Shown here: positions 2,419 through 28,762 of the stretch, one piece after another | Numbering within the stretch: position 1 is the stretch's first letter | Layout of the letters: every line of letters starts with the position of its first letter | Virus record (IMG/VR): IMGVR_UViG_2724679074_000004 | Span: 1-33,787 of that record | Source: a virus | Lineage: Duplodnaviria > Heunggongvirae > Uroviricota > Caudoviricetes | DNA length: 33,787 bases | Strand: one strand, 5' to 3' | Notes under the pieces: generated by a model | Databases searched by the model: none | Told to the model about the DNA's origin: nothing | Seen by the model: the letters and a program-made list of their open reading frames with translations, nothing else | Translations under genes and position numbers: made by a program

Positions 2419-2826
2419 ATGCCATTCCACCCAACTGGTGAGGCATCAAGGATGTACAGCAAATACGACGAGGCGAAGTTTCACTTGAGACTTCCGCATG
2501 AACTCCACGCGAAAATTAAACAGCGCGCGAAGATGAATAACAGGTCACTGAACTCAGAGATAATTGCAGCGATTGAAGAATCATTGGCTAAACAAAGCTC
2601 TGCATCAGTTTACATTGACGATGCAGAGCGTATGCAGAACAACAATCTGATATGGTTAAGAAAATTGTCTTTGATACGCTCAAAGAGCTATATAAAAAAG
2701 ACAGCAGTTAACCATCAGTTACGGAGGATTTATGCAAAGAGATACGCTGAATATTGCGTTCTACATATTTGGTTTTTGCACGTTCCTGGTGTTTGCGAAG
2801 CTATTCTGACAACGCATCAGACTTAG
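2419..2826 (+). CDS. mnt: Mnt-like ribbon-helix-helix repressor (immI remnant); true start possibly the internal ATG at ~2452; C-terminal ~40 aa extension overlaps gp16 3' end
   Basis: Segment FHLRLPHELHAKIKQRAKMNNRSLNSEIIAAIEESL resembles the RHH N-terminus of P22 Mnt/Arc; divergent orientation between gene 16 and gene 9 homologs matches P22 mnt. Confidence 0.55.
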   Translation: MPFHPTGEASRMYSKYDEAKFHLRLPHELHAKIKQRAKMNNRSLNSEIIAAIEESLAKQSSASVYIDDAERMQNNNLIWLRKLSLIRSKSYIKKTAVNHQLRRIYAKRYAEYCVLHIWFLHVPGVCEAILTTHQT

Positions 2827-19757: not shown

Positions 19758-20279
19758 CTAAATGGATAATTGCATGTCAAGGCTTTTAACAGCAACATGC
19801 TTAACTTTCTCAACACGTTTACGCATTTTGAAAGCATTTTGCATTGGCTGGTACAAAACAAATAACGACGCTTTCAGGATGTCGTCAATTTCGTTTCTAC
19901 AGGTTGCCAGTGAAGGTTTTCTCCATCCCTCGCCACCACGTCCACACATCTTGCGTGGCTTTGCAGTCGCGTGATAGTAGGATGCAATTGCTCGCTTAGA
20001 TGAACCATGAGCGTAGTAGCTGAGGAGGATGCCAAAGGCTTTCTTGTCAATGTACATGACGGAATCGACGACCTGAGAAATCAACATTCCATCATCATCA
20101 TTGCACATTGGCCTTGTCATAACTCTTCCCGGCTCTACGCTCTCCATGAACTTCGCTATTACGCTGCTCATGCGCTTTTCCAGACGACCTGAATAAACCC
20201 ATGCGCCCCACAGTTCAAGCCAGCAATTCAGCCAATCGTGCTGTTCTTTGGTGAGGTTTAGTTCTCTTATGCTCATCAT
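19758..20279 (-). CDS. Late-gene antiterminator Q (phage 82 / Phage_antitermQ-type, gene 23 position)
   Basis: 173 aa ORF directly downstream of the nin genes and upstream of the late leader/lysis genes; resemblance to 82-type Q proteins is from memory. Confidence 0.55.
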   Translation of the reverse strand: MMSIRELNLTKEQHDWLNCWLELWGAWVYSGRLEKRMSSVIAKFMESVEPGRVMTRPMCNDDDGMLISQVVDSVMYIDKKAFGILLSYYAHGSSKRAIASYYHATAKPRKMCGRGGEGWRKPSLATCRNEIDDILKASLFVLYQPMQNAFKMRKRVEKVKHVAVKSLDMQLSI

Positions 20280-22171: not shown

Positions 22172-22608
22172 GCCGCCCTGTCTCCCCATCTCGCTTTCCA
22201 CTCCAGAGCCAGTCGCGCTTCGTCTGACCACTTAACGCCACGCTCTGTACCGAATGCCTGTATAAGCTCTAATAGCTCCGCAAATTCGCTTACACGCATC
22301 CTGCTGGTTGACTGGCCTATTACCACAAAGCCATTCCCGGCAAGGTTAGGAACAACGTCCTGCTGCTTTAATGCAGCTGTAAAAACGCACTTCCAGCTTT
22401 CTGCATCCAGCCAGCGACCATGCCATTCAACCTGACGAGAGACGTCACCAAGGCAAGCCCAAAGCTTTCGATTCTGGTCTAAGCTGCGGTTGCGTTCCTG
22501 AATGGTTACTACGATTGGTTTGGTTGGGTCTGGAAGGATTTGCTGTACTGCGTGAATAGCATTTTGCTGAAGTGCTGGAGATCGAATTTCAAAGGTCAGT
22601 TTTTTCAT
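22168..22608 (-). CDS. ninB: NinB (Orf-family recombination mediator)
   Basis: 146 aa from [67 protein letters not shown].. near-identical to lambda NinB. Confidence 0.9.
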
Positions 22609-22685
22609 GACTTCCCTCTCCCCCAAATAAAAAGACCTGCGATTACCAGCAGGCCTGTTATTAGCTCAGTGATGTAGATGGTCAT
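22605..22685 (-). CDS. Possible 26-aa hydrophobic peptide gene bridging ren and ninB
   Basis: ATG overlaps ren stop (ATGA) and its TGA overlaps ninB ATG (ATGA): [26 protein letters not shown]; too short for the ORF track. Confidence 0.3.
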   Translation of the reverse strand: MTIYITELITGLLVIAGLFIWGRGKS

Positions 22686-22972
22686 TGCCTTACCTCCATA
22701 AGCGCCCTATTAATAAACGCCGTCATTGGATTTGCACATCCCCACCCCGTACCATCTGGATTTCTTTTAATTGGCTCCTTCTTCACTTTGCGTTTTGCAT
22801 AAATAACCGTCTTCCACTTACGCTCAACAACACTCAAATGTCCTTGTTTCACCATATGCCTTGCTGCTTGAGCGATTCTGTTATTTGGTATTCCGGTGAT
22901 CAGTGCTAATTCATGTGGGGAGAATTGTTCATGAGTTTTCAGATATTCCAGGATGATTTCTTTTCCAGTCAC
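22682..22972 (-). CDS. ren: Ren (Rex-exclusion protection) protein
   Basis: 96 aa, N-terminus MTGKEIILEYLKTHEQFSPHELALITG resembles lambda Ren (MTGKEAIIHYLGTH..); position directly after the helicase-loader gene. Confidence 0.7.
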   Translation of the reverse strand: MTGKEIILEYLKTHEQFSPHELALITGIPNNRIAQAARHMVKQGHLSVVERKWKTVIYAKRKVKKEPIKRNPDGTGWGCANPMTAFINRALMEVRQ

Positions 22973-23862
22973 GATCTGCTCCTGTAACTATCCCATGTAA
23001 ACGCAAGAGTGCACCCGCCGCCATCATTCATCCTGTCAATAACACGCTCACCAATGAATGCCGAAAGTTCATCTTTGCTCTGATTACTAATCAGGATTGT
23101 TGGCTTCATGTATTCATATCTGGTGTTGATAATTTCGAACATGATTAGCTTTTCAGCATCACTGCCGAACTGCACGCCAACCTCATCGATTATTAACAAG
23201 TCAGGATGCGTAAATTGCCTAATGACTTCTTCTTCAGTTCTGGTTGCGGCCTTAGACCATGTTGATTTGTACTCTCTGGCAATTTTCAACGCAGTGGTAA
23301 ATATCACAGAGCTTTGATGCTCGATAATGGCGTGCCTAGCAATAGCCAGTGCAAGGTGGTTCTTTCCAGTTCCAGGCTTACCACACATGACCAGTCCGCC
23401 ACCTTTTTGAAGGCGTTCAGGCCACTTACTGGCATATGCCTGGCAAACCTTAAGAACTCGCTTTGCATCATCGTTAACAGGCTCATAATTCTGAAGAGTG
23501 CAATTTTTGAACCTCTCTGGAATATTGAGAGAATTCAACAAATATTCAATTTTTGATTGTCTTGCTCTTTGTTCTGCCTGCTCACGTTCAATCTCTTTCT
23601 TACGAATTTTCTCCTCAAGGCACTGTTGGCACTCAGATTTACTTGAAGTAATTCTTTTTCCTGAGATGGTCAGATATTTCTCATAGGAAGTATATTTACC
23701 GTGTTTCTCGCACTCTTCCACTGTGCTGGCAACTGACATTCCATCTGATGCTGATCCAATTTTGCTAAACTCAAGTTTCTGTTTCAGATCAGAAATGTCA
23801 TTGATTTTTGAGTCTACAAGTTGCCTTTGCAGTGCCAGATTGTAACCATTTGTCGTATTCAT
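22969..23862 (-). CDS. DnaC-family replicative helicase loader (AAA+ ATPase) in the lambda P position
   Basis: Walker A CGKPGTGKNHLALA, Walker B LLIIDEVG; start taken at MNTTNGY.. just after O stop. Confidence 0.85.
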   Translation of the reverse strand: MNTTNGYNLALQRQLVDSKINDISDLKQKLEFSKIGSASDGMSVASTVEECEKHGKYTSYEKYLTISGKRITSSKSECQQCLEEKIRKKEIEREQAEQRARQSKIEYLLNSLNIPERFKNCTLQNYEPVNDDAKRVLKVCQAYASKWPERLQKGGGLVMCGKPGTGKNHLALAIARHAIIEHQSSVIFTTALKIAREYKSTWSKAATRTEEEVIRQFTHPDLLIIDEVGVQFGSDAEKLIMFEIINTRYEYMKPTILISNQSKDELSAFIGERVIDRMNDGGGCTLAFTWDSYRSRS

Positions 23863-23864
23863 AT

Positions 23865-24710
23865 TCACTCCTGCGCCCATGAAGGCATTTCAGTTTGCCC
23901 GTAATCTTTGGCGGCAAAGTTTTCCTGCATAGCTCGCTGCTGCGGCCTCGGTTGAGATTTCCCCTTTGGAGTCTTGGGTTCAAAAATCCCCTGCCAACCA
24001 CTGGCGATGCTCTGGTTTATAATTTCTTCAGGTGTATATCCCTTCTCCAGACTTCTGCTTAGAACGTTGATAGCCTGAGTGACACTTTGCTTAGACTTGA
24101 TCGACTTACCTATCTCCTTGCGATAGGTAACCCACGACAACCATGTTTCTGCTGATAACCAATCAGGCAACTCTGTTTCTAGCGGGTCGAACTTCTGAGA
24201 AACTTTTTTGGGGGATATAGGGGGTTTATTAATATTTTCTTTTGTCTTTAAAGAATGTCTTTTGTGTGTCTCTAACTTCGAGACATTGAGTGTCTCTAAT
24301 TTGGAGACATTTTTTGTCTCTAACTTCGAGACAAAGTTGCTAACTTGGAGACACTTGCTGAATTGCCACGCAGATACCTCCCTGTTTACACCGATTTTAT
24401 TTCCATCCATAAACAGGCAATTCATTGAAATCAGTTCTTTTTTAGCCTTGTTAACATTCTGCCTTGACAGTCCTGTTAACTGAGCAATTTGCTCATCGGC
24501 TATTCGATCTGTTTTCTTATTGAAGCCATATGTTTTCCGGACGTAGGCCAGCATAACTTTCAACTGGCGAGCGGTTAAATCGGCACTTGCGATAGCTTCC
24601 AGCAGCTCGTTAGCGAATCTGGTGTAACCATCATCGATATCAGCCACTCTTAGCTCCTGTTCGGCAAAGTTACCTCTGCCGAAGTTGAGTATTTTTGCTG
24701 TATTTGTCAT
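23865..24710 (-). CDS. O: Replication initiator, lambda O-like N-terminal domain; contains ori iterons
   Basis: N-terminus MTNTAKILNFGRGNFAEQELRVADIDDGYTRF.. matches lambda O; encoded repeats VSKLETKNVSKLETLNVSKLET reflect DNA iterons. Confidence 0.9.
   Translation of the reverse strand: MTNTAKILNFGRGNFAEQELRVADIDDGYTRFANELLEAIASADLTARQLKVMLAYVRKTYGFNKKTDRIADEQIAQLTGLSRQNVNKAKKELISMNCLFMDGNKIGVNREVSAWQFSKCLQVSNFVSKLETKNVSKLETLNVSKLETHKRHSLKTKENINKPPISPKKVSQKFDPLETELPDWLSAETWLSWVTYRKEIGKSIKSKQSVTQAINVLSRSLEKGYTPEEIINQSIASGWQGIFEPKTPKGKSQPRPQQRAMQENFAAKDYGQTEMPSWAQE
24263..24345. repeat. Replication origin iterons: four ~20-bp tandem units (tgtctctaacttcgagaca-like, each internally palindromic), flanked on the O-downstream side by an AT-rich tract (~24190-24260)
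   Basis: Read directly: tgtctctaacttcgagaca / gtgtctctaatttggagaca / ttgtctctaacttcgagaca / aagttgctaacttggagaca inside the O-like gene, as for lambda ori. Confidence 0.75.
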
Positions 24711-24742
24711 AATGACTCCTGTGGATTGATCCAGTAATGACC

Positions 24743-25033
24743 TCAGAATTCCATCTGGATTTGTTCAGAACGCTCGGTTGCCGCCGGGCGTTTTTTATTG
24801 GTGAGAATCGAAGCAACTTGTCGTGCCAATCGAGCCATATCGTCGTCGACGACGCCCCATTCAAGAACAGCAAGCAGCATTGAGAACTTTGGAATCCAAT
24901 CCCTCTTCCACCTGCTGATCTGCGACTTATCAACTCCCACAGCTTCCGCTGTCTTCTCAGTTCCAAGCATTGCGATTTTGTTAAGCAACGCACTCTCGAT
25001 TCGTAGAGCCTCGTTGCGTTTGTTTGCACGAAC
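24743..25033 (-). CDS. cII: CII transcriptional activator (lambda-type)
   Basis: MVRANKRNEALRIESALLNKIAMLGTEKTAEAVGVDKSQISRWKRDWIPKFSMLLAVLEWGVVDDDMARLARQVA.ILTNKKRPAATERSEQIQMEF is essentially lambda CII; ORF track extends upstream over nutR, but true start is MVRANK. Confidence 0.9.
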   Translation of the reverse strand, partial: VRANKRNEALRIESALLNKIAMLGTEKTAEAVGVDKSQISRWKRDWIPKFSMLLAVLEWGVVDDDMARLARQVASILTNKKRPAATERSEQIQMEF

Positions 25034-25094
25034 CATATGTAAGTATTTCCTTAACAAATAAGAAGTTATGCGCATCAACTTATGCGCGTTGTAT

Positions 25095-25138
25095 TCCCGC
25101 ATTTCGGCGGGAATGAGGACCATGACTGTTAAAGAGCG
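25095..25138 (-). promoter_or_regulatory. nutR: boxA (CGCTCTTTAA) and boxB hairpin (TCCCGC-CGAAAT-GCGGGA) between cro and cII
   Basis: Minus-strand sequence CGCTCTTTAACAGTCATGGTCCTCATTCCCGCCGAAATGCGGGAA; same boxB as the nutL copy upstream of N. Confidence 0.55.
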
Positions 25139-25145
25139 GTGTTAC

Positions 25146-25370
25146 TTATGCTGCCTGATTCGGTTTTGGAAACAGGTGTGGCAAATCGGGGCGAATTTCG
25201 TAAGCCTTGATCTGCCCTCCAGTGGCGTTAACGATGGCGGTAACTTTCTCTGGAGAGACCAACCCGCCTTTCAGCCATTTGTGTACTGCTGGCTGCGTTA
25301 CACCACACTTGTCGGCAAGGCGCTTTTGGCTACCGACAATTTTCAAGGCTCGTTGAATTACTAAATTCAT
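25146..25370 (-). CDS. cro: Cro-like HTH repressor (start probably at MNLVIQ..)
   Basis: Small HTH protein (..QKRLADKCGVTQPAVHKWLKG..) divergent from cI across an operator region; AGAGG 7 nt upstream of second ATG. Confidence 0.7.
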   Translation of the reverse strand: MNLVIQRALKIVGSQKRLADKCGVTQPAVHKWLKGGLVSPEKVTAIVNATGGQIKAYEIRPDLPHLFPKPNQAA

Positions 25371-25406
25371 GAGCATACCTCTTGTGGTCATTACTTATAA
25401 CCAAAG

Positions 25407-25469
25407 ATAACTCAAGTTATAAAAAATAGCAATAACCTTTGTTATTTTACTTTGGATAACCGTAGTTAT
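25407..25469. promoter_or_regulatory. OR operator region: three 14-bp palindromes with ATAAC/GTTAT half-sites, centre spacing 24-25 bp, between cro and cI (PR/PRM region)
   Basis: ATAACTCAAGTTAT (25407-25420), ATAACCTTTGTTAT (25432-25445), ATAACCGTAGTTAT (25456-25469) read directly. Confidence 0.6.
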
Positions 25470-25481
25470 AGATTTGTGGGT

Positions 25482-26189
25482 ATGAAAACATTCGCAGAAA
25501 GACTAAATGCAGCCATGAGCTCAGCAGGGGTATCACAATCACAGCTTGCTGACATGGTTGGAATATCTCAGCCAGCCATACAGAAGATGTCGTCCGGTAA
25601 AACAAACGGATCTCGCAAGATGGTTGAATTAGCCAATGCTTTAAAAGTGCGCCCTGAATGGCTTAGTTCTGGTATTGGTGAAATGAGGGATGGTGCACAT
25701 GAAGAACCATCCAATTTCCGTGAGTCATCTTTAAAAGCTGTGGTATGGGAAGACATTAAAAGAAACGATGACGAGTTTGTTGCGTTGCCTCTTCTTAACG
25801 TTTCGCTTTCAGCTGGAAGCGGTAGCTGCGAGCTAGAGGAATCATCGGAGTTCTCTTTGGTTTTCAGAAAGCACTATCTGAAAAAGATGGGAGTATCTGA
25901 AAGATCAGCCAAGCTAGTTAGGGTTGTAGGGCAAAGCATGGAACCAACGCTTCACGATGGCGATGTTGTTGGTGTTAACACGCAAGATACCACCATCAGA
26001 GATGGTAAAACCTACGCTATTTGCCAGTCTGATTTGTTACGAGTAAAAACATTAATCGCCACCCCTACATCGGTGATAATCAGATCAATAAATCGCGAAG
26101 AGTACCCGGATGAAGTAATGGATAGAGATGAATTTCATGAAACCGTAAGGATTATTGGCAGAGTATTCTGGTCGTCTCATAGTTGGTAA
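25482..26189 (+). CDS. cI: CI-type prophage repressor (XRE HTH + S24 LexA-like autopeptidase domain)
   Basis: N-terminal HTH (SQSQLADMVGISQPAIQKMSSG), Ala-Gly cleavage motif (SLSAGSG), catalytic Ser in GQSMEPT and Lys in RVKTL; start taken at MKTFAERL (track uses an upstream TTG). Confidence 0.9.
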   Translation: MKTFAERLNAAMSSAGVSQSQLADMVGISQPAIQKMSSGKTNGSRKMVELANALKVRPEWLSSGIGEMRDGAHEEPSNFRESSLKAVVWEDIKRNDDEFVALPLLNVSLSAGSGSCELEESSEFSLVFRKHYLKKMGVSERSAKLVRVVGQSMEPTLHDGDVVGVNTQDTTIRDGKTYAICQSDLLRVKTLIATPTSVIIRSINREEYPDEVMDRDEFHETVRIIGRVFWSSHSW

Positions 26190-26229
26190 CCGATAATCAG
26201 AAGAAGACTTACGGAAGTGCGGAGGGATA

Positions 26230-26526
26230 ATGGAATTTCTGATAGTTTTTGTTGTTGTTTTGGTCATCATTCTTTTTGTTTTGCTAAGCATTAGTAAAAA
26301 GCTATCTCAAGTGATTGAACATAGCTCTAATCGCGCAAAAGAAGAAGAGCATCTAATTGATATAAAAGAGATTCTCTCTGATATAAAAATCACATTAGAT
26401 GAAATAAAATACACAACAGATCTAATTGAACAGTATAAAATACCAACCCCAAACGAGAGAAAAGCAATAGATCAATATCGTATTGACTTAGAAATCGACG
26501 AAATGCTAAGCAAAAGAAAAGACTAA
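26230..26526 (+). CDS. Hypothetical single-pass membrane protein encoded by an AT-rich moron in the rex/sieB position downstream of cI
   Basis: 98 aa: N-terminal TM helix (EFLIVFVVVLVIILFVLLSI) then charged helical region; GGAGGG RBS; visibly AT-rich codon usage; followed by intrinsic terminator. Confidence 0.6.
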   Translation: MEFLIVFVVVLVIILFVLLSISKKLSQVIEHSSNRAKEEEHLIDIKEILSDIKITLDEIKYTTDLIEQYKIPTPNERKAIDQYRIDLEIDEMLSKRKD

Positions 26527-26532
26527 AAACAC

Positions 26533-26560
26533 CCGGCCTCAGCGCCGGGTTTTCTTTTCC
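26533..26560 (+). terminator. Intrinsic terminator ending the cI-orf98 transcription unit
   Basis: CCCGGC-CTCAGC-GCCGGG hairpin followed by TTTTCTTTT. Confidence 0.6.
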
Positions 26561-26680
26561 TGCCGTTCACCACCCAATCACCCATCATCATCATAGACAA
26601 GCATCAAGCCAAAGGTAACACCTTCACCCCGCACGCAAGCCCTCAAACACCAATCAATCAGCAACATTTACAAAAATAAA

Positions 26681-26764
26681 ATACCTTTGTTATCCATCAC
26701 TTATAACTTATTTACCACAAAATATAAATTAGGTTATTGACCACACCTATAACCTAAGTTATCT
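26681..26764 (+). promoter_or_regulatory. OL/PL region: operator-like ATAAC/GTTAT palindromes and a candidate PL promoter (-35 TTGACC, -10 TATCTT) directed toward N
   Basis: ATACCTTTGTTAT, ATAAATTAGGTTAT and ATAACCTAAGTTAT share half-sites with the OR operators; TTGACC-17bp-TATCTT read directly. Confidence 0.5.
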
Positions 26765-26810
26765 TTAAGCCATCAGCAGGACGCTGGTAGCCAAACGGAA
26801 CAGATTGGCA

Positions 26811-26851
26811 GGCTCTTTAGCATTGATGGGATTGTCCCGCCGAAATGCGGG
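26811..26851 (+). promoter_or_regulatory. nutL: boxA-like GGCTCTTTAG and boxB hairpin CCCGC-CGAAAT-GCGGG upstream of N
   Basis: Same boxB sequence as nutR; located between PL and the N start. Confidence 0.5.
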
Positions 26852-26959
26852 AACCAAAGAGTAGTTGGCTTTGGGGTGACGTGAAGTGCAGCTGCACGAC
26901 GGCAACCGGAAGATAAGCACCCGGCGCGTCACCGCCAAAGTCAATCATCGGAGGTCAAC

Positions 26960-27232
26960 ATGACAGTAGTCATTACATATCTGGCTGACGATAACGCCAG
27001 AAATCGCCGCAGAGCACGCAGACAGGCTCAACGTGAGCAGGCAATGCAAGAACAGCGACTGGCGCGAAAAATTGCGCTAAAGCTCTCTAGTTGCGTCAGA
27101 GCAGACAAAGCAGCATCACTCGGAAGCCTTCGCTGCAAGAAGGCAGAAGAATGCAGTGGAAGTATTTGCCTGCCAAACGTAGCTCTTTACGCGGCAGGCT
27201 ACCGGAAATCAAAACAACTGACAGCCAGGTAA
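26960..27232 (+). CDS. N: N-type transcription antiterminator (P22 gene 24-like)
   Basis: Arginine-rich motif NARNRRRARRQAQREQ at N-terminus; C-terminus LPNVALYAAGYRKSKQLTAR matches remembered P22 gp24; preceded by nutL. Confidence 0.8.
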   Translation: MTVVITYLADDNARNRRRARRQAQREQAMQEQRLARKIALKLSSCVRADKAASLGSLRCKKAEECSGSICLPNVALYAAGYRKSKQLTAR

Positions 27233-27235
27233 GTG

Positions 27236-27460
27236 ATGAATCAGACATACATTCCATCATGCTTGAGAAATCTGCCAAAGCAGAAAGCAAAGCCCCGCAA
27301 GCAAGCCATAAAGGACGCTAAGGCAGAGGTTATTGATCAAGCAATACAATTGCTCAGGGAGGAGTTAAGAAGTGGCAAGCTCGAAGGAATGATGATGCCC
27401 TATCAGCGCGGATATCTATCGGCGATTAGTAAGTTGGAAGTATTGAAGAGTGAATTATGA
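27236..27460 (+). CDS. Hypothetical small basic protein (74 aa) immediately downstream of N
   Basis: ORF starting 1 codon after N stop; no recognizable family. Confidence 0.45.
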   Translation: MNQTYIPSCLRNLPKQKAKPRKQAIKDAKAEVIDQAIQLLREELRSGKLEGMMMPYQRGYLSAISKLEVLKSEL

Positions 27461-27493
27461 ACTATCTGGAATTTCCGGATGGTTCATTGTTTT

Positions 27494-27515
27494 GGCAGCA
27501 AACCACTTATTTGAG
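27494..27515 (+). repeat. 22-bp direct repeat copy 1 (GGCAGCAAACCACTTATTTGAG)
   Basis: Identical copy at 27617-27638; each sits ~10 nt upstream of an ATG. Confidence 0.75.
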
Positions 27516-27616
27516 GTGATATATGGAAGAACAAGCAAACAAGATTCTCGTAGAGCTACCGCAAGCCACGCAGTGAAATGGGTGTTACTTGTGTTGGTCG
27601 CCAGAAAATGAAATTA

Positions 27617-27638
27617 GGCAGCAAACCACTTATTTGAG
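27617..27638 (+). repeat. 22-bp direct repeat copy 2 (GGCAGCAAACCACTTATTTGAG), immediately upstream of the RBS/start of the 207-aa gene
   Basis: Identical to 27494-27515. Confidence 0.75.
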
Positions 27639-27648
27639 AGGAATTAAT

Positions 27649-28272
27649 ATGTCATCAATCCGCTTAACTACGAGAATGAAAGAGGAAATCGCTCGTAACG
27701 CTTTAATTAAGTCTGGGGTTTTCACTGAACTTGAAGAAGTAACAAAGTTAAAGAACCAGCTTGCACTTGACGCCAGAGTTATTGCGTTTGGCGGTAAAAA
27801 GAAAACTGAGGAAGTGGATCGGTTATCATCCAAGTTAGCAGCTATAAGTGAAGAACTTGAGAAGATGGGATGTTCATTTTACTCATGCGATGTTCGTTCT
27901 ACTTCGATTTATCTGACTGTATCTGGAAGAAGGGTTGGCTGGCATTCATATGGGAAAGACGGCAACGGCGAAGATATATTGCTCCCTACTCCGACAAAAG
28001 ATAAATGCATGTTTGACGCAGAGCACGAAATAACAAAAAGGTTTGATGAAATCTGCTCATTACAACAAAAACTTGAAGCAAAGAAAAAGGATATCGAATC
28101 AAATGTATGGGCTGCTTTAAACTCAGTCACAACAGTTAAGCGACTTATTGAGGTTTGGCCTGAAAGCAAAGAGTTGCTACCAAAAGAAGCAGATAAAGCA
28201 AGTACAGCACTTCCTGCTTTACGGGTAGAAGATTTGAATAAGATGATTGGACTTCCTTCCGAGGCCGCATAG
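27649..28272 (+). CDS. Hypothetical protein (207 aa), unknown function, early-left accessory region
   Basis: Start at MSSIRLTTRMKEEIARN with GAGGAA RBS; soluble, coiled-coil-rich; no family recognized. Confidence 0.55.
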   Translation: MSSIRLTTRMKEEIARNALIKSGVFTELEEVTKLKNQLALDARVIAFGGKKKTEEVDRLSSKLAAISEELEKMGCSFYSCDVRSTSIYLTVSGRRVGWHSYGKDGNGEDILLPTPTKDKCMFDAEHEITKRFDEICSLQQKLEAKKKDIESNVWAALNSVTTVKRLIEVWPESKELLPKEADKASTALPALRVEDLNKMIGLPSEAA

Positions 28273-28309
28273 TCGGCCTTTATTTTTGGCATAAACAACA
28301 GAGGCTAAC

Positions 28310-28606
28310 ATGGAATTTAAAGGTACTGAAGGTAAGTGGGAAATAATGATGGATGGCGATGAGATTAAAATCATCCAGGCAGACTCACTTGAAAATGGCA
28401 CAGGCTGGCGTTCGTATATTGCAATCTGTGAGGAAGTTCAATGCATTGAAGATGCCAATCTAATAGCGGCAGCACCTGACCTTCTCGAAGCACTTCAGTT
28501 ATTACTTAAGCAAACCAAAAATAGAACAACGACAACATATCCAGAATGGTATGGAGCTGTTAATAAAGGTCTTGCAGCAATCAGAAAAGCTCTTGGGGAA
28601 GAATGA
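28310..28606 (+). CDS. Hypothetical protein (98 aa), unknown function
   Basis: ORF 38 bp downstream of the 207-aa gene; AT-rich; no family recognized. Confidence 0.5.
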   Translation: MEFKGTEGKWEIMMDGDEIKIIQADSLENGTGWRSYIAICEEVQCIEDANLIAAAPDLLEALQLLLKQTKNRTTTTYPEWYGAVNKGLAAIRKALGEE

Positions 28607-28762
28607 TGAATAAGAAATACATTGTTGAAGTTATAGAGCGAGAAACAAAAGAAGTAATTAAACATTTCGAATTTGATAATTATAGAAAAGCTGACCGCGT
28701 AGAAGAAGGATTGTTGCGACAAAGTAATCTCGAAAAATTTGATGTTGTCATGCGATGCGAAT
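28604..28762 (+). CDS. Possible small protein (52 aa) overlapping the stop of the 98-aa gene
   Basis: ATG in ATGA-type overlap with upstream stop: MMNKKYIVEVIERETKEVIKHFEFDNYRKADRVEEGLLRQSNLEKFDVVMRCE; below track cutoff. Confidence 0.35.

Follow-up and report, generated by a model that had tools for sequence, protein, structure and literature searches.

Ever since lambdoid genomes were first compared, these phages have been known to exchange modules at nut sites, at gene ends and where cII meets O. Highly mosaic early operons, with exchanges that range across the lambdoid phages, are described for P22-like phages (PMC2629481; PMC8022706). The DNA analyzed here, a stretch of 33,787 nucleotides that we call the window, is a P22-like temperate phage of the Sf6/HK620 type that reads from right to left, and different described phages come closest to different parts of its early region. 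The phage mEpX1, a siphovirus of the Hendrixvirinae in contrast to the P22-like window, shares ren, the helicase loader gene, O, its iterons and the 3' end of cII (proteins 98.6-100% identical), but its own cII is HK97-like (35% identical), its cI and cro are VT1-Sakai-like, and its N is different. In lambda, as in 434, SfI, HK633 and Louie, codons 1-16 of O, the spacer between O and cII, the promoter and terminator of oop, and the pRE box are the same as in the window. On both flanks, however, lambda differs: its own cro, cI, rex and N are absent from the window, the iterons are not the same, the O proteins have unrelated C-terminal domains, and in place of P the window encodes a DnaC-like loader. 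HK620 has the same nutR (100%), nutL and N (98%) and boxB hairpin, yet its cI, cro and operators are different, its cII is P22-c1-like (53% identical) and its replicon is made of O and a DnaB-like helicase. The Stx1a-converting phage Stx1a_10051 matches at 98.9-100% from the start of cII to the stop of N, including cro, OR, cI, orf98 and OL; past the cII start codon (about 25033) only a weak match is left (66-71% over 24500-24650), so that this phage must have cII and replication genes of other kinds. More distant are the PA28-type Stx1 phages; PA28 shares the ATAAC-N4-GTTAT operators and has cI and Cro proteins 85% and 86% identical to those of the window, but differs in having a lambda-type O and a "replication protein 14".

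In the window, the region for early control and replication is a mosaic of such lambdoid modules, a chimera that is real but routine. In BLAST blocks and in a table of identity by 50 nt, the segment 22616-24804 (ren, loader, O and the 3' end of cII) goes with mEpX1, at 98.5% identity over 2189 bp and 98-100% along the block; 24618-25053 (the 5' end of O, oop, cII and pRE) goes with lambda, at 96.1% DNA identity over 436 bp and 92-100% across 24650-25053; 25034-25146 (nutR) is 100% identical to HK620; 25147-26765 (cro, OR, cI, orf98 and OL) is found, at 99-100%, only in Stx1a_10051-type prophages; and 26766-27232 (nutL and N) returns to HK620, at 98% overall and 96-100% in the 50-nt table. Stx1a_10051 itself is 96-100% identical over 25033-27232. 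Thus, the recombinational mosaicism proposed in the initial annotation is borne out by blocks with different nearest relatives, and the uniform similarity to a single known phage that would speak against it was not found, no phage record covering at least 80% of the region 22900-27500. The interval to which the chimera had been assigned (24743-26189) takes in the genes from cII to cI but leaves O, the loader and N outside. Every gene of the region falls into its expected family in Pfam, PHROG and NCBIfam; a 126-aa extended frame at 24743-25123 and other overlapping open reading frames were regarded as non-genes. The arrangement of the modules, the motifs in the sequence and the family assignments are directly established. 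We regard it as very probable that a temperate coliphage or prophage of the P22-like (Lederbergvirus) type has its early region here, and that pre-existing modules were joined in it by homologous and short-homology recombination among lambdoid phages; no datum is at odds with this reading.

All three genes of the replication block lie on the minus strand. The initiator, an O-type protein of 281 aa (23865-24710), matches Phage_rep_O (PF04492; 123.7 bits, cut-off 28.7) and TIGR01610 (108.8 bits, cut-off 45.5) and is 98.6% identical to the O of mEpX1. Within its gene lie the iterons of the origin (24267-24353), comprising three perfect copies of TGTCTC-N7-GAGACA (24267, 24291 and 24315), each a 19-bp palindrome, and one degenerate copy, with a period of 24 bp and an adjoining A+T-rich stretch at about 24200-24262. 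A Phage_rep_O domain combined with iterons and an A+T-rich origin in its own coding sequence makes this a lambda O-type initiator. The iterons had been called lambda-like, which holds for their architecture but not for their sequence: in the alignment with the lambda origin the layout is shared and the repeats differ, and neither the TCCCTC...GAGGGA iterons of lambda origin specificity nor the P-binding C-terminal domain was found in this O, whose C-terminal 165 aa gave no alignment to lambda O. Similarly, the lambda-like N-terminus is identical to that of lambda O in residues 1-16 and 58% identical over residues 1-115, but the similarity, 94% at 24650-24750, 74% at 24600-24650 and 64-67% from there on, fades at about codon 25-30. 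The same decay within the N-terminal domain is seen in mEpX1, which makes it a long-standing property of this allele of O. The DnaC-type loader recognized earlier is confirmed as an AAA+ ATPase of the DnaC/IstB clade. This protein of 303 aa (22969-23880), with Walker A (GKPGTGKN) and Walker B (LLIIDEVG) motifs, matches Pfam IstB_IS21 (68.3 bits, cut-off 24.1) and PHROG 50 (E 1.2e-84), aligns through residues 100-302 with the E. coli DnaC structure 6QEL (E 1.5e-33), and is 99.3% identical to the mEpX1 loader; BLASTP gave no match to lambda P at E < 0.01. Against the NCBIfam equivalog of host DnaC (NF005931) it scores 165 bits, below the cut-off of 357; it is a phage paralogue resembling DnaC, extended N-terminally by about 95 aa. 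A small ren-like or MarR-like gene (22682-22972; PHROG 1687, PHROG 142) completes the block, its 96-aa product being 100% identical to the Ren-like protein of mEpX1 and 41% identical to lambda Ren.

The cII gene (24743-25036, minus strand; Phage_CII, PF05269, 163 bits, cut-off 21.3) had been described as identical to that of lambda. The protein very nearly is, with 96 of its 97 residues the same and a single A-to-S change, but the DNA patch is 96% identical and lies closer to those of other lambdoid phages, namely Louie (99.3%), HK633 (98.9%) and 434 (97.0%). In the 5' end of cII, on the plus strand and directed at cro and cI, is the CII box of pRE, TTGCGTTTGTTTGC (25014-25027), which is the same as in lambda in the alignment; the family profile and this TTGC-N6-TTGC target in the gene's own 5' end place the protein among the phage CII activators. 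The window has 7 sites of the form TTGC-N6-TTGY where 5.3 are expected, which is no enrichment, and those in meaningful places are only pRE and one antisense in Q (19951-19964), in a paQ-like position. On the plus strand, antisense to the 3' end of cII, an oop-like RNA unit spans 24685-24797, with a promoter (TTGAGT-17-CATAAT, 24685-24713) and a terminator hairpin (24767-24794) from the promoter and terminator scans, an RNA fold z-score of -3.25 and 94-100% identity to lambda. Scanned over its whole length against Rfam with gathering thresholds, the window had no match, and no curated RNA family therefore covers oop or nut here.

Upstream of cII, the segment identical to HK620 corresponds to what is annotated there as nutR and tR1. 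On the minus strand, nutR (25070-25138) consists of boxA CGCTCTTTAAC (25128-25138), a boxB hairpin TTCCCGCCGAAATGCGGGAA (25094-25113) and a second hairpin (25070-25087). Its counterpart nutL (26812-26852, plus strand) has boxA GCTCTTTAGC (26812-26821) and boxB TCCCGCCGAAATGCGGGA (26835-26852), and RNA folding gives the two boxB elements a common hairpin, CCCGCCGAAATGCGGG. Beyond nutL is the N gene (26960-27232, plus strand), whose 90-aa product matches N_peptide (PF25694; 60.8 bits, cut-off 27.9) and contains the arginine-rich motif NARNRRRARRQAQ. These features, with boxA and an identical boxB after both pL and pR, are those of an N-type antiterminator. The earlier description of N as P22-like does not stand: it is of the HK620 type, 96.7% identical to HK620 N against 38% to P22 gp24. 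In the alignment N is itself a three-part mosaic that resembles P22 only in the last 20 or so residues and the first few, and the RNA-binding N-terminus is not of the gp24 type, the arginine-rich motif being different.

Between the nut sites lies the immunity cassette, whose layout is that of a lambdoid immC switch: cro (start 25370, minus strand) and cI (start 25482, plus strand) diverge from three 14-bp palindromes with overlapping promoter hexamers. The perfect palindrome ATAAC-N4-GTTAT, whose half-sites were reported earlier for the operators, occurs 4 times in the window against 0.03 expected, and all copies fall in OR or OL, 3 between cro and cI (starting at 25407, 25432 and 25456) and 1 at pL (26749). 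In OR (25404-25474), OR1 (25407-25420), OR2 (25432-25445) and OR3 (25456-25469) are spaced by 25 and 24 bp; the operator coordinates of lambda give 24 and 23 bp. By eye, we selected hexamers for a candidate pR (TTGCTA-17-TATCTT, 25404-25432, minus strand) and a candidate pRM (TTTACT-17-TAGATT, 25446-25474, plus strand), the latter ending 7 nt before the cI ATG; the consensus promoter scan reported pL and the oop promoter only, and neither of these candidates. A second operator set with OR-type sequence is present at pL (TTGACC-17-TATCTT, 26737-26765, consensus scan). On this plus-strand segment (26680-26765), OL1 (26749-26762) is perfect, and two imperfect copies, OL2 (26724-26737) and OL3 (26680-26693), have 1 and 2 mismatches; as OL2 and OL3 are imperfect and lie 44 bp apart, the left operator may have only two functional sites. 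HK620, which had appeared as a 92% match at OL, was rejected, since the alignment puts the high identity after pL only; at OL and pL it is about 70% identical and has other half-sites.

The two regulators are likewise distinct, as had been stated: beyond the helix-turn-helix they are unrelated to their counterparts in lambda, P22, HK620 and Sf6. Cro (74 aa, 25146-25370) is of the all-helical YdaS/P22_Cro type (Pfam YdaS_toxin 64 bits, P22_Cro 25.6 bits), is 100% identical to the Cro of the E. coli 222 prophage, and gave no match to lambda Cro. The cI repressor (235 aa, 25482-26189) combines an N-terminal helix-turn-helix (HTH_3, 29.5 bits, cut-off 23) with a self-cleaving S24 domain (Peptidase_S24, 63.9 bits, cut-off 23.3), and the Ala111-Gly112 site and the Ser152 and Lys189 dyad are unchanged throughout an alignment with the repressors of lambda, P22, HK620 and mEpX1, as in self-cleaving repressors of the LexA/lambda cI kind. 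It is 99% identical to the cI of Stx1a_10051; its helix-turn-helix is closest to that of the 434 repressor. With lambda cI it shares 23% identity (E 0.009), and the operator region is without lambda similarity. Since the operators differ and cI is only this similar, the immunity specificity almost certainly differs from that of lambda, as predicted earlier; with cI, Cro and the OR/OL sequence all non-lambda, the cassette is not imm-lambda. Because the Cro of PA28 bears a 933W note, 933W was considered as the source of the immunity type and rejected: its cI gave no match, identity between the Cro proteins is only 32%, and the stretch of 933W examined lacks ATAAC-N4-GTTAT. Downstream of cI, in the position of rexAB before the terminator, is orf98 (26230-26526, plus strand; PHROG 18389), which encodes a small membrane and coiled-coil protein with no match in Pfam, NCBIfam or PADLOC and occurs, among phage records, only in Stx1a_10051. 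Co-transcribed with cI in the rex position, orf98 could conceivably be an exclusion gene. PADLOC applied to orf98, orf75, the Nmad5 protein and their neighbors returned no defense system, only generic AAA+ matches of the loader. A bidirectional intrinsic terminator, tIMM (26531-26550), identified by the terminator scan, ends the cI-orf98 transcript.

The transitions between blocks are abrupt, with similarity undetectable beyond them in the alignments. At the nutR/cII junction, which had been proposed, the lambda-like block and the HK620/Stx1a-like one meet in a 20-bp sequence common to lambda, HK620 and Stx1a_10051, TAAGGAAATACTTACATATG (25034-25053), a candidate crossover point. Relative to mEpX1, the joint specific to the window phage is in the 3' end of cII, at about 24750-24804. 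Two features unremarked in the initial annotation are a second sharp edge of the immunity cassette at about 26765, directly after pL, and the matched HK620-type nut sites that bracket the cassette. The other proposed junction, between O and the loader, is absent, as both genes are collinear with mEpX1 at 98-100% within 22616-24804.

Vertical descent with uneven selection, in which strong purifying selection kept the cII patch and the nut/N blocks while their neighbors diverged beyond recognition, would fit the functional constraint on cII, the nut sites and oop, as well as the gradual rather than stepwise fall of lambda similarity in O (94%, 74%, 65%). We nevertheless hold it to be highly improbable. 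The identity of 96-100% extends to synonymous and intergenic positions and becomes undetectable within 1-20 bp at 25053/25054, about 26765 and 27232/27233; furthermore, the nearest relatives differ by block, being a siphovirus (mEpX1), podoviruses (HK620) or Stx phages, and one tree therefore cannot explain the region. It is also very unlikely that the odd combination arose by deletions in a decaying cryptic prophage: many lambdoid prophages of E. coli are indeed defective, but here the switch and replicon genes are all full length, the operators, nut sites and origin are intact, and the remaining window carries a full P22/Sf6-type set of virion, lysis and nin genes, collinear with the plaque-forming HZ41, Bas106 and IME10.

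A contig mis-joined between two co-resident lambdoid prophages across common cII/nut sequences would give a combination absent in nature. The joints do lie in widely common sequences, the cII patch being present in 1912 of 5426 E. coli genomes and in up to 6 places per genome, and repeats of this kind are typical points of assembler collapse. However, the order O-cII-nutR-cro-cI is present at 99% identity, with a GIY-YIG insertion as the difference, in E. coli 222, 103 and B1_2, whose genomes are complete; each joint is also found singly in further complete genomes, O-cII-nutR with another cro (H148-H150) and cII-nutR-cro with other replication genes (H157-H160); and reading frames and regulatory sites are intact across the joints. 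This makes a mis-join extremely improbable. At least 80% of 22900-27500 is covered in 2 of the 5426 E. coli genomes, and the arrangement as a whole is closely matched only by the prophage of E. coli 222 and 103 (NZ_CP020516, NZ_CP020495), which is about 99% identical over O, cII, nutR, cro, cI, orf98, OL and nutL. It differs in having a 670-bp segment with a GIY-YIG nuclease gene in place of 24663-24704 at the 5' end of O, a loader that is 73% identical with an unrelated N-terminal part, and a different C-terminus of N. Phage N7, which had appeared as a near-complete match, was rejected, as its similarity to the window is limited to the replication genes and the N region, and its c2 is of the P22 type.

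In close relatives from E. coli 222, 103, B1_2, JNE120393 and 2A, the GIY-YIG nuclease gene lies exactly at the first O codons, and Louie has an HNH nuclease gene between cII and the replication genes. It is conceivable, though doubtful, that free-standing homing endonucleases drive ongoing exchange at the cII/O joint and make it a hot spot, with the window carrying an endonuclease-free allele. Were this so, repair after cleavage could repeatedly re-join different cII/immunity blocks to different replicons.

To return to recombined pre-existing modules, the region appears to combine a standard lambda-type switch of non-lambda immunity with an O/DnaC-like replicon; DNA binding, immunity specificity and helicase loading we infer from homology. 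Four modules, each a functionally matched set, would be involved: an mEpX1-type replicon of O, DnaC-like loader and ren, with its own iterons within O; cII of the lambda/434 type, accompanied by its own pRE box and by the oop antisense RNA; a Stx1a_10051/PA28-type immunity cassette of cro, OR, cI, orf98, tIMM and OL; and N of the HK620 type, together with the matching boxB hairpins of the nutL and nutR that flank the cassette. Dimers of cI would bind ATAAC-N4-GTTAT cooperatively at OR1/OR2 and OL1/OL2, repressing pR and pL, and bound cI would activate pRM, whose transcript is probably leaderless; Cro would bind the same operator sites, and RecA-stimulated self-cleavage of cI at Ala111-Gly112 would induce the prophage. 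CII would activate pRE via TTGC-N6-TTGC, and N would antiterminate at the two identical boxB sites. O would bind its own iterons, and its non-lambda C-terminal domain would recruit the DnaC-like ATPase, which would load host DnaB.

Reshuffling of modules of the type observed here is already known and is part of ordinary lambdoid evolution; conceptually, these findings add nothing new on lambdoid mosaicism and have little importance past annotation. They identify the replicon as O with a DnaC-like loader rather than O/P, and they assign the phage to a non-lambda immunity group, with ATAAC-N4-GTTAT operators, that is common to some Stx1a-converting prophages. This immunity group predicts which co-resident prophages would be co-repressed and which would be heteroimmune.

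The window represents, by its ORF listing and BLAST comparison with reference genomes, a P22-like (Lederbergvirus-type) temperate phage, with a genetic map that reads from right to left along the plus strand. Its virion, lysis, and nin genes are matched by BLAST in Sf6, HK620, and P22, and with a 25-kb query (8800-33787) the closest whole-genome relatives are the coliphages HZ41, Bas106, APC_JM3.2, and IME10, each of which aligns over 51-56% of the query at ~97% identity. At issue is the early region for control and replication (~22600-27300), in which the expected family of every gene was confirmed above curated cut-offs (Pfam, PHROG, NCBIfam). The minus strand encodes a ren-like gene (22682-22972), a DnaC-like loader (22969-23880; IstB_IS21/DnaC-like), O (23865-24710; Phage_rep_O), cII (24743-25036; Phage_CII), and cro (25146-25370; YdaS/P22_Cro), and the plus strand encodes cI (25482-26189; Peptidase_S24 plus HTH_3) and N (26960-27232; N_peptide).

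This region is a real, ordinary lambdoid mosaic. Mapped by BLAST blocks together with a table of identity per 50 nt, it resolves into segments with different best matches. From ren through the loader and O to the 3' end of cII (22616-24804), identity to the siphovirus mEpX1 is 98-100%, dropping to 72% at 24750-24800 and vanishing thereafter. Lambda similarity is 64-74% at 24500-24650, reaches 92-100% over the O 5' end, oop, cII, and pRE (24650-25053), and is absent past 25053. HK620 matches nutR at 100% (25034-25146), lacks similarity across cro, OR, cI, and the membrane protein gene orf98 (25147-26650), returns at ~70% over OL (26650-26765), and matches nutL and N at 96-100% (26766-27232), ending exactly at the N stop codon. 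The entire interval from the cII start to the N stop (25033-27232) is 96-100% identical to the Stx1a-converting phage Stx1a_10051. The 20-bp sequence at 25034-25053 that is common to the lambda-like and HK620/Stx1a-like blocks is the joint between them. The mosaicism and the nutR/cII junction proposed by the initial annotation both hold. The Sf6 record has annotated "boundary sequences" of its own, one of them directly after cII.

Of 50,697 phage genomes, none covers at least 80% of 22900-27500; among 5,426 complete E. coli genomes, only the two of strains 222 and 103 reach this coverage, and both carry a 670-bp GIY-YIG nuclease segment in place of window positions 24663-24704. The combination might be read as an artefact of assembly; however, each joint also occurs singly in other genomes, some having the O-cII-nutR of the window followed by another cro, and others its cII-nutR-cro followed by other replication genes. 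This argues for free reassortment of common modules.

The segment earlier described as lambda-identical is a 436-bp patch (24618-25053) running from the pRE -10 region and the cII ribosome-binding site through cII and the oop promoter/terminator to about the first 30 codons of O. In protein sequence, 96 of 97 CII residues and residues 1-16 of O are the same as in lambda; the DNA is 96.1% identical. The core observation stands, but "identical" needs correcting; 434, HK633, and Louie are nearer to the patch than lambda is. The CII box TTGC-N6-TTGC is present at pRE, and a promoter/terminator scan and RNA folding show an intact oop unit. A second CII-type box, TTGCGTGGCTTTGC (19951-19964, plus strand), lies antisense within Q (19758-20279, minus strand) in a paQ-like position; such boxes show no statistical enrichment across the window.

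Beyond its first 16 residues, O retains 58% identity to lambda O across 115 aa, and the rest does not align. The origin inside O is built of 19-bp palindromes recurring every 24 bp, three of them perfect and a fourth degenerate, with an A+T-rich stretch beyond them. This is the layout of the lambda origin, but the repeat is TGTCTC-N7-GAGACA rather than lambda's, so that the iterons are lambda-like in arrangement alone. The DnaC-type loader matches the E. coli DnaC structure 6QEL (E 1.5e-33). The junction predicted between O and this gene is absent, because both are collinear with mEpX1; the fading of lambda similarity within O is shared by mEpX1 and is therefore a long-standing property of this allele. 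In lambda, the C-terminal domain of O contacts the loader; here, that domain travels together with the DnaC-like gene. A comparison of window 22969-23250 with the loader of the E. coli 222 relative indicates that the loader is itself modular, since its N-terminal ~95 residues give way to unrelated sequence there and its AAA+ part is only 66-90% identical at the DNA level. Cys and His residues in this N-terminal part are suggestive of a zinc-binding element. A 2002 review by Wrobel and Wegrzyn on lambdoid replication modules is cited in PMC5109545.

The immunity cassette is predicted to confer a non-lambda specificity, as had been proposed. Its operators have ATAAC/GTTAT half-sites: four perfect ATAAC-N4-GTTAT copies occur in 33.8 kb (0.03 expected), three within the 111 bp that separate cro from cI and a fourth at pL, where two imperfect copies complete OL. 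Nothing close to this cI or Cro is encoded by lambda, P22, HK620, or Sf6; the nearest match to the cI HTH is the 434 repressor, and Cro is nearest to all-helical Cro proteins. OR1-OR2-OR3 centers are spaced by 25 and 24 bp, versus 24 and 23 bp from lambda operator coordinates. O1 and O2 overlap candidate pR (TTGCTA-17-TATCTT) and pL (TTGACC-17-TATCTT) promoters. A candidate pRM (TTTACT-17-TAGATT) ends 7 nt ahead of the cI ATG, so that cI mRNA would be leaderless; OR2 abuts its -35 and OR3 lies over its spacer, which matches the arrangement at lambda pRM. Homology and geometry thus point to a switch that most likely operates in this manner, and the Ala-Gly site and Ser/Lys dyad retained in the cI alignment are features from which RecA-dependent induction would be expected. 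PA28-type Stx1 phages have the same half-sites, with cI 85% and Cro 86% identical; therefore, this immunity family is already represented among sequenced Stx phages.

Between cI and a bidirectional terminator (26531-26550), in the position of rexAB, orf98 (26230-26526, plus strand) encodes a 98-aa protein with a membrane helix at its N-terminus and a charged tail of coiled-coil type. It is a member of PHROG 18389 (function unknown), matches nothing in Pfam, NCBIfam, or PADLOC, is found among phage records only in Stx1a_10051, and is a candidate for an exclusion or conversion gene expressed in the lysogen. Elsewhere, a 135-aa Arc/Mnt-like ribbon-helix-helix protein (2419-2826, plus strand; Pfam Arc, E 2e-14) adjoins a large ORF (36-2318, presumed tailspike) and probably represents what remains of, or a variant form of, a second immunity region of the P22 immI type.

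N had been called P22-like; its identity is 96.7% with HK620 N but only 38% with P22 gp24. Alignment reveals a three-part protein, with an HK620-type arginine-rich N-terminus, ~30 central residues as in mEpX1 N, and a last ~20 nearly identical to P22 gp24. The same boxB hairpin adjoins boxA in nutL and nutR. Together with N, these sites come from an HK620-like source, a joint inheritance that is functionally sensible in that the pair lies on either side of the immunity cassette. Just 3' of N in the early-left operon, roughly at the sieB/ral place of lambda and P22, lies a gene (27649-28272, plus strand) for a 207-aa protein with the Pfam domain Nmad5 (nucleotide modification associated domain 5; E 7e-71) belonging to PHROG 1965 (function unknown). 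Across 27233-28756, the complete lambda, P22, HK620, and Sf6 genomes and the retrieved parts of mEpX1, Stx1a_10051, and the E. coli 222 prophage give no DNA match except 83 bp (27556-27638) shared with the latter two.

In published work on P22-like phages, the early operons are characterized by extensive mosaicism and by exchange throughout the lambdoid group (PMC2629481; PMC8022706). The chimera is thus a textbook phenomenon, correctly recognized by the initial annotation even though its O/loader joint and N assignment were wrong, and its modules are individually already in databases at 96-100% identity. At the cII/O joint, the window is the endonuclease-free form: a GIY-YIG nuclease gene sits exactly at the O 5' end, between cII and O, in the close relatives E. 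coli 222 (prophage L004, 4716-5385), 103, B1_2, JNE120393, and 2A, and in phage Louie a gene for an HNH endonuclease is listed between cII and the replication genes. The recurrence of such free-standing genes could point to endonuclease-driven exchange, an explanation we regard as improbable; the presence of nuclease genes at this joint in relatives is the sole mildly novel lead.
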